From: Escherichia coli
Lineage (GTDB): Bacteria > Pseudomonadota > Gammaproteobacteria > Enterobacterales > Enterobacteriaceae
Assembly: GCF_003334335.1 (NCBI RefSeq)
Contig: NZ_QOWQ01000026.1
Direction: 5' to 3' (one strand)
Length of the DNA stretch: 64,000 bases
Shown here: positions 63,559 through 63,924 of the stretch, piece by piece
How the letters are laid out: every line of letters begins with the position of its first letter
How positions within the stretch are numbered: the first letter of the stretch is position 1
Position numbers and translations under genes: made by a program
Notes under the pieces: model-generated
The model's database searches: none
Told to the model about the DNA's origin: nothing
The model's input: only the letters and a program-made list of their open reading frames with translations

Positions 63559-63655
63559 CGCGATCATAATCACGGCAATAACATATTTTTTATGACTTTA
63601 TCCGTCCCGCATGACATAACAACTATCTGGTAGTTATAAGTTGCTTCTTCTGGTT

Positions 63656-63681
63656 GGGGAGTCGGAAAACTCCCCCTTTCT
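63656..63681 (+). terminator. Hairpin downstream of the dinI-like gene
   Basis: ggggag-tcggaaaa-ctcccc followed by ctttct (weak T-run). Confidence 0.4.
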
Positions 63682-63924
63682 GATCATCCTGTTTTACCCG
63701 CTTAACCAGCAACCTGCCTCAGATTCACAAGTCACTTTTTGTATGGTATAAACCGGCGCTTTAATACAATTTACAGCCCTGGCATTTTCTGGCGGAGAGT
63801 GCGAAACTCCCTTTTTTACGGCATTTCTGTCGGAACTCATATTTTTCCTGCATATCTGACACTTGCGTATTTTCATGGAAGGAGATCACCCAATAACCCC
63901 GATCTCCTTCATGTTAATACGCAG

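Follow-up and report, generated by a model that had tools for sequence, protein, structure and literature searches.

The closest described counterpart of a structured sequence behind a dinI-family gene is DinR of Klebsiella. According to its published description, DinR is an Hfq-binding, SOS-induced sRNA that is processed from the 3'UTR of the chromosomal dinI and pairs with the ribosome-binding site of ftsZ. The closest described DNA is that of phage P-EibC of E. coli ECOR-9 (GenBank AF151674). The 372-bp intergenic query from the locus in this work is 100% identical to P-EibC in the BLAST search against phages. P-EibC was the only full-length match in that search, and P-EibA matched the hairpin-1 part alone. 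The record AF151674 annotates a stem_loop at its positions 7339-7371, which correspond to 63878-63910 of the window (the whole stretch of 64,000 nucleotides of E. coli DNA that was analysed). The two hairpins that are the subject of this work are unannotated in that record.

The last 4 kb of the window consist of aspS (minus strand), yecD (plus strand), a truncated yecE, and then foreign DNA. The complete genome of DETEC-S792 exhibits the same order, which consists of aspS, yecD, a yecE fragment, a gene for a DinI-like family protein, a convergent gene for an S6 family peptidase, small ORFs, and a YadA-like (Eib) gene. The end of the window is taken to lie in the left arm of a lambdoid prophage of the P-EibC type that is integrated in yecE. 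The prophage-chromosome junction (62952-63240) consists of the truncated yecE ORF (62952-63062) and, after it, repeats of the ATGCCCCA type (about 63175-63232). Motifs of this type are also present at the prophage end that adjoins rcsD, and they are possibly the integrase arm sites of attL. The features at this end of the window are as follows.

63245-63294, plus strand: SOS-type promoter region of the dinI-like gene, with a promoter-like match and LexA-box cores
63310-63558, plus strand: dinI-like coding sequence, 82 aa, identified by PHROG 189, NCBIfam DinI, and the PGAP name
63559-63655, plus strand: 3'UTR of the dinI-like gene ahead of hairpin 1, 97 nt, aligned with the IAI39-type 3'UTR
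63656-63682, plus strand: hairpin 1, the predicted intrinsic terminator of the dinI-like mRNA, with a 7-bp stem, a 6-nt loop, and the tail CUUUCUG
63701-63705, no strand: CTTAA, a target site that is empty in the window and filled in ompW prophages
63724-63752, plus strand: weak promoter-like match TTCACA-17-(TGg)TATAAA, read from the sequence and probably not functional
63760-63863, plus strand: segment B, a rare noncoding block of 104 bp that carries hairpin 2, searched for by BLAST
63794-63817, plus strand: hairpin 2 with its T6 tract, a weaker terminator-like element that is related to hairpin 1
63864-63923, no strand: MITE-like palindromic element of 60 bp with TGCGTATT...AATACGCA ends, identified by its fold, copies, and target duplications
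63925-64000, minus strand: 3' end of eaaC (SPATE autotransporter, S6 family peptidase), which is convergent with the dinI-like gene and runs off the window

The product of the dinI-like gene matches PHROG 189 ('RecA filament binding protein DinI') with an E value of 8.9e-27. It scores 63 bits against the NCBIfam DinI equivalog, which is under the cut-off of 111, and is hence regarded as a DinI paralogue. The PGAP label in the identical locus is 'DinI-like family protein'. The promoter-like match of this gene (TTGACA-18-AAAAAT at 63245-63274) overlaps LexA-box cores. Two perfect CTGT-N8-ACAG cores are located at this promoter (63251-63266 and 63279-63294) with a spacing of 28 bp. The same pattern has four matches in the 64-kb window where 0.68 are expected, and two of these four are the cores at the dinI-like promoter. 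The remaining two perfect cores are located at 4801-4816 and 42323-42338.

The gap between the stop of the dinI-like gene (63558) and the convergent eaaC coding sequence (lowest base 63925) is 366 bp. The original prediction had called the gene beyond this gap an OMP gene. It is not a small OMP; the P-EibC record and the annotation of DETEC-S792 identify this sequence as part of the SPATE autotransporter EaaC, namely its C-terminal beta-barrel end. The accompanying statement that no convincing ORF lies between the hairpins agrees with our results, where the three small ORFs of the gap have no NCBIfam or PHROG match. These ORFs are interrupted in relatives by T runs of different lengths (T6, T7, and T8) and by a 65-bp insertion. 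A coding role for them was rejected on both grounds.

Two related stem-loops were read from the sequence on the plus strand where they had been predicted, and their starts are 138 bp apart. The local alignment of hairpin 1 with hairpin 2 (TTCTGG..GGrGAGT..GAAACTCCC) has a score of 21. The comparison of hairpin 1 with the 91 other terminator-like hairpins of the window gave a mean score of 10.1 (sd 2.0) and a maximum of 16, against the 21 of hairpin 2. A score of 21 was attained in 79 of 2000 shuffles of the whole flanks, thus the homology between the two hairpins is only moderately significant by simple shuffling. The motif GGRGAGY-N4-7-RCTCC, a pattern that was chosen post hoc, matches only the two hairpins on the plus strand of the 64 kb where about 0.1 matches are expected. 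The z-scores of folding as isolated RNAs are -0.68 for hairpin 1 and -0.39 for hairpin 2, and neither hairpin beats shuffled sequence in stability. Since these z-scores are unremarkable, the evidence for the hairpins is their position, T tracts, and conservation, and not their energy. No U run follows hairpin 1 or hairpin 2 on the minus strand. Ten hairpin variants were aligned (five of hairpin 1 and five of hairpin 2); 94.3% of the cells pair in this alignment and the unpaired cells are all in alleles of hairpin 2.

Hairpin 1 consists of the stem arms GGGGAGT (63656-63662) and ACTCCCC (63669-63675), the loop CGGAAA (63663-63668), and the tail CTTTCTG (63676-63682). Five of the seven base pairs are G-C. 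The T tract is weak and the hairpin barely passes the terminator scan. The segment that carries it (63540-63712) is present in 86 of the 5,426 complete E. coli genomes. In each of them, it lies immediately 3' of a dinI-like gene, a dinI remnant, or a gene that replaces dinI. The matches fall into three identity classes (at least 99%, 90-95%, and about 74%). The IAI39-type allele of hairpin 1 is GGGGAGC-CTGAGT-GCTCCCC-TTTTTTT. The allele in the ompW prophage (L003) is GGGGAGT-CGAAAA-ACTCTCC, in which a G-C pair has become a G-U pair. Another dinI-like gene at the yecE site, which has an unrelated short 3' end (L017-type), is followed by GGGGAGT-TAACTT-ACTCCCC-ATTTTTT. All five variants of hairpin 1 are fully paired. 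The helix is recovered by RNAalifold, and besides the change of G-C to G-U it shows a two-sided replacement of U-A by C-G.

Because its stem is kept across alleles behind dinI-like genes, hairpin 1 is assigned to the dinI-like mRNA as its conserved intrinsic terminator. The conservation across related prophages that had been suggested as a check is accordingly present for hairpin 1, with compensatory change. The IAI39-type and L017-type alleles have T6-T7 after the hairpin, unlike the CTTTCTG of the window. Judged against these alleles, the window allele is unusual only in the loss of most of its U tract.

Hairpin 2 consists of GG(A)GAGT (63794-63800), the loop GCGAA (63801-63805), ACTCCC (63806-63811), and TTTTTT (63812-63817). 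Its stem of 6 bp has one bulge or mismatch, which is why the simple terminator scan missed it. Hairpin 2 has an energy of -6.7 kcal/mol in the window, and three other alleles (L004, L006, and L007) reach -9 to -10 kcal/mol. A rival pairing of GCAUUUUCU (63782-63790) with GGAGAGUGC (63794-63802) takes the 5' arm of hairpin 2 in the window allele and has an energy of -9.9 kcal/mol compared with -6.7 kcal/mol. This alternative fold is predicted for the window allele and for none of the other hairpin 2 alleles. Six sequence versions of hairpin 2 were found, of which five were scored in the alignment since L007 differs from L004 in the length of the T run only. Mismatches occur in three of the five alleles and compensatory changes in none; the alleles of L008 and L077 carry uncompensated disruptive changes. 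The T tract is kept in all alleles (T6-T8).

Segment B is present in 22 of the 5,426 E. coli genomes, in one IMG/VR contig that represents the same prophage end, and in ten gut-metagenome contigs. It occurs in exactly two contexts, which are the window type and the prophage end that adjoins rcsD (13 genomes). The ten metagenome contigs exhibit the same two contexts and add one new hairpin allele. The pattern scan of 100,044 species genomes (one per species) gave four matches in four unrelated non-E. coli MAGs, which is about the number expected by chance. No intact source gene for segment B was found in E. coli genomes, phages, IMG/VR, metagenomes, or the 100,044 species genomes. Within segment B, variation is greatest in the hairpin region, and the stretch 3' of the T tract is the best conserved and nearly invariant. 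Selection on hairpin 2 is unproven because of these uncompensated mismatches and the variability of the hairpin region within segment B. Across related prophages, the T tract of hairpin 2 is kept throughout; the hairpin itself is rare, and it is degraded in L008 and L077.

The gap is a mosaic whose segments are found apart from one another in other prophage ends. The window and the ompW-prophage loci (L003 and L005) match over the stretch that starts at the dinI stop and reaches about 63754 (...TTTTTGTATGGTATAAACC in the window and ...TTTTTGGGTAGACACC in the ompW loci). Beyond this position, the window continues with GGCGC and segment B, and the ompW loci continue with an eaa-proximal stretch of ~170 bp. 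At the rcsD-adjacent loci, the dinI-like gene has lost its start codon and its body, and segment B directly follows what remains, namely the LexA-box promoter and the initial ~40 nt of the gene. Segment B is followed there by CTGGTAGACACC and then by the same ~170 bp as in the ompW loci. Since the dinI body and hairpin 1 are lost at the rcsD-adjacent loci, hairpin 2 is the only terminator left between the promoter and eaa. The fusion of promoter, dinI remnant, and segment B is found in L004, L006, L007, and L008 (about 2880-3065 of L004). If this fusion is transcribed, it would yield an SOS-inducible noncoding RNA of about 110 nt.

The simplest account of the three arrangements is one ancestor with three single deletions, where the order of events is our inference from the compared loci. 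In this ancestor, dinI would have been followed by hairpin 1, a spacer, segment B with hairpin 2, a stretch of about 170 bp, and eaa, in that order. The ompW type would derive from it by one deletion in which segment B was lost between TGGTA repeats. The rcsD-adjacent type would derive by one deletion of the dinI body and hairpin 1, and the window type by one deletion of the ~170 bp that adjoined the 60-bp element. The original prediction had proposed a terminator duplication. The terminator part of this proposal stands well, as hairpin 1 is conserved with a compensatory stem change and hairpin 2 is related to it, has a T6 tract, and lies on the same strand. The mosaic gap does not fit a simple tandem duplication in place. 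Duplication remains a plausible origin for the relatedness of the two hairpins.

The two hairpins are most likely ordinary transcription stop signals in series behind an SOS-induced prophage dinI-like gene. The best explanation as a whole, to which we give a probability of about 0.68, is that hairpin 1 is the terminator of the dinI-like mRNA, hairpin 2 is a paralogous terminator module, and the gap between them is a mosaic. The LexA-repressed promoter would drive the dinI-like gene inward, head-on towards the convergent eaaC. Hairpin 1, about 100 nt past the dinI-like stop codon, would end the mRNA by Rho-independent termination. Since its U tract has decayed to CUUUCUG, some read-through is expected. 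Hairpin 2, 138 bp downstream with the same TTCTGG-GGrGAGT-loop-ACTCC(C) design and a full T6, would then catch this read-through and may prevent SOS-induced transcription from running antisense into eaaC.

It is unlikely that hairpin 2 does nothing and that hairpin 1 alone matters, with hairpin 2 being a decaying remnant of another prophage end. The rarity of segment B (22/5,426 genomes), the uncompensated mismatches in three of the five alleles, the weak window allele with its competing fold, and the ompW-type prophages that are without segment B are consistent with such a remnant. However, a T tract of 6-8 T is present in every allele, three alleles reach -9 to -10 kcal/mol, and hairpin 2 is the sole terminator between the retained LexA-box promoter and eaa in the rcsD-type loci. 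Moreover, none of the three arrangements has lost both hairpins from the stretch between the SOS promoter and eaa. On the sequence evidence, our reading of hairpin 2 is a paralogous terminator, either a back-up or a relic, within a prophage end that deletions have scrambled.

A small prophage-encoded RNA that ends at the second T tract had been proposed as the other reading of the hairpins. The Rfam scan that had been suggested with this proposal covered the whole window at the gathering threshold and 63000-64000 at E<=10, and nothing was found at the hairpins. The matches of Rfam 15 in 63000-64000 at E<=10 were chance miRNA-type matches on the palindrome only, and the scan of the related loci gave no match. 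Two known chromosomal features were matched at gathering level elsewhere in the window, namely the overlapping SraC/RyeA (plus strand) and SdsR/RyeB (minus strand) sRNA pair at 34656-34800 and a cspA-type thermoregulator leader at 18708-19168 (minus strand). The Rfam result, the lack of a consensus promoter between the hairpins, and the uncompensated damage in hairpin 2 alleles all speak against the proposed RNA, and nothing found shows a new small RNA gene at this locus.

A different RNA reading concerns the 3'UTR of the dinI-like gene. About 63559-63682 might be processed from the dinI-like mRNA and released as an SOS-induced, Hfq-binding regulatory RNA in the manner of Klebsiella DinR. Segment B with hairpin 2 might then be a duplicated or variant 3' module and possibly a second RNA of this kind. 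By analogy, the locus would carry a phage-borne counterpart of DinR with a different target, which we regard as quite improbable. The precedent itself favours this reading, and so does the long 3'UTR with 97 nt ahead of the terminator. A small conserved hairpin (GTAGTT-ATA-AGTTGC) is located in the 3'UTR at 63630-63644 and is followed by the U-rich linker UUCUUCUGGUU. The 3' ends of Hfq-binding sRNAs have a layout of hairpin, U-rich linker, and terminator, which the layout here resembles. The 3'UTRs of the window type and the IAI39 type are about 74% identical, and RNAalifold retains the 63630-63644 hairpin, in which an A-U pair has become C-G, so that both-sided changes are found in two hairpins between the two lineages. 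The support from covariation is thin because only two lineages are independent. The 3'UTR is also kept where the coding sequence is replaced by a YkgJ-family gene (L011) or cut by IS1 (L010).

The points against this 3'UTR-derived RNA are that Rfam gave no match, that hairpin 1 of the window is without the long U tail that is usual for Hfq-dependent sRNAs, and that pairing with the ribosome-binding region of ftsZ is no better than in shuffles. For the 3'UTR, segment B, and the related alleles, the duplex energies with the MG1655 ftsZ region (-35 to +15) do not fall outside the shuffle distributions. DinR-like action on ftsZ was rejected by these shuffle controls, which concern ftsZ as the target and leave other targets unaffected.

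Behind many other prophage dinI-like genes lies a different structured element, also conserved, which is a further point for the 3'UTR reading. It occupies the first ~110 nt after the dinI-like stop codon in IMG/VR prophage contigs (L033-L064), where it is strongly conserved. It consists of a helix GGCTGG/CCAGCC around the near-invariant loop CAATCATTCAATACTCGCACTATCGAA and a second hairpin with compensatory changes in nine pairs. This element has no Rfam match; it may be a DNA site, or else an RNA element of the 3'UTR that has not been described before.

An independent sRNA gene, with a promoter at 63724-63752, a start near 63760, a length of about 58 nt, and an end at hairpin 2, is highly improbable: its TTCACA-17-TATAAA match has an extended -10 TG and lies 7-8 nt 5' of the start of the segment B homology, and hairpin 2 has a U6 tail with a U-rich stretch ahead of it, but the candidate -10 is without the conserved T at -7 (hence it was missed by the consensus promoter scan of 63683-63793, which reported none) and sits at the mosaic junction, being absent from the related ompW loci L003 and L005, while the 13 rcsD-type genomes have segment B behind a dinI remnant without such a promoter, segment B is best conserved 3' of the T tract and most variable at the hairpin, and no Rfam match was found. 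A promoter of its own for an sRNA between the hairpins is thus unsupported, as the scan was negative and the best candidate is not conserved.

The remaining part of the gap is occupied by the 60-bp element, which ends 1 nt from the eaaC stop codon. A 13-bp inverted repeat had been predicted here. The repeat exists, with the corrections that its left arm CATGGAAGGAGATC (63874-63887) has an extra G opposite GATCTCCTTCATG (63901-63913) and that it is the inner part of a 60-bp palindrome (63864-63923). The element is noncoding, has terminal inverted repeats, and is palindromic over nearly the entire unit, with fold z-scores of -5.8 and -7.7. Elsewhere (L003 at about 3231-3295 and L012-L015), it is a discrete unit of 60-68 bp with unrelated flanks. 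Copies were counted in 2,724 of the 5,426 E. coli genomes, with a median of two and up to seven places per genome, where the count is of matches to the whole 372-bp query and nearly all of the matches listed cover the 60-bp part only. The copies lie in either orientation and in different islands (agn43, iuc, and ibrB-like). MG1655 has no copy in its CP4-44 region.

The window has a single CTTAA where L003, L005, and L010 exhibit the 60-bp element flanked by CTTAA on both sides. The copy in the ompW prophages is in the opposite orientation and lies between hairpin 1 and the rest of the spacer. The copy in L013 is flanked by ACGTT on both sides. The target duplications are 5 bp (TTAAG and ACGTT) and are clean at two of the five independent sites examined. 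We assign the 60-bp element as a MITE-like mobile element from its structure, copies, and target sites. The TG...CA ends and the 5-bp duplication presumably point to an IS3-type enzyme. No U run follows the stem-loop annotated in AF151674 on the eaaC strand. The literature search with the palindrome sequence gave no paper on this element, and it has no Rfam family.

The result tidies the annotation of P-EibC-type prophage ends and is in itself of little consequence. A virulence-associated autotransporter gene would be insulated from SOS-induced antisense transcription if the tandem terminators are functional. New biology would come only from the 3'UTR-derived sRNA, a reading that is unproven. 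If that reading is true, the element in L033-L064 would suggest that SOS-linked riboregulators of temperate phages recur at dinI 3' ends.

The locus resembles Klebsiella DinR in its LexA-controlled dinI-family gene (two CTGT-N8-ACAG boxes and a DinI family match), in the unusually long and lineage-specific sequence from stop codon to terminator, and in the conserved structure of the 3'UTR. It differs from DinR in its parent gene, which is a prophage dinI-like paralogue here and the chromosomal dinI there, and in its complementarity to the ftsZ ribosome-binding site, which is not above chance here. Compared with typical intrinsic terminators, the U tract of hairpin 1 is degraded in the window, the stem of hairpin 2 is bulged without demonstrable selection, and termination is predicted. 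The locus is similar to tandem or back-up intrinsic terminators in that a G+C-rich stem-loop with a T run lies on the coding strand 3' of a gene, two of these stand in series ahead of a convergent gene, and the stem of hairpin 1 is kept by compensatory change. The 60-bp element is similar to bacterial MITEs in its size of 60-68 bp, its noncoding nature, terminal inverted repeats, 5-bp duplications, filled and empty sites, and unrelated flanks. The record AF151674 treats the stem-loop after eaaC as a plain stem-loop, whereas by this comparison it is the core of a dispersed mobile element.
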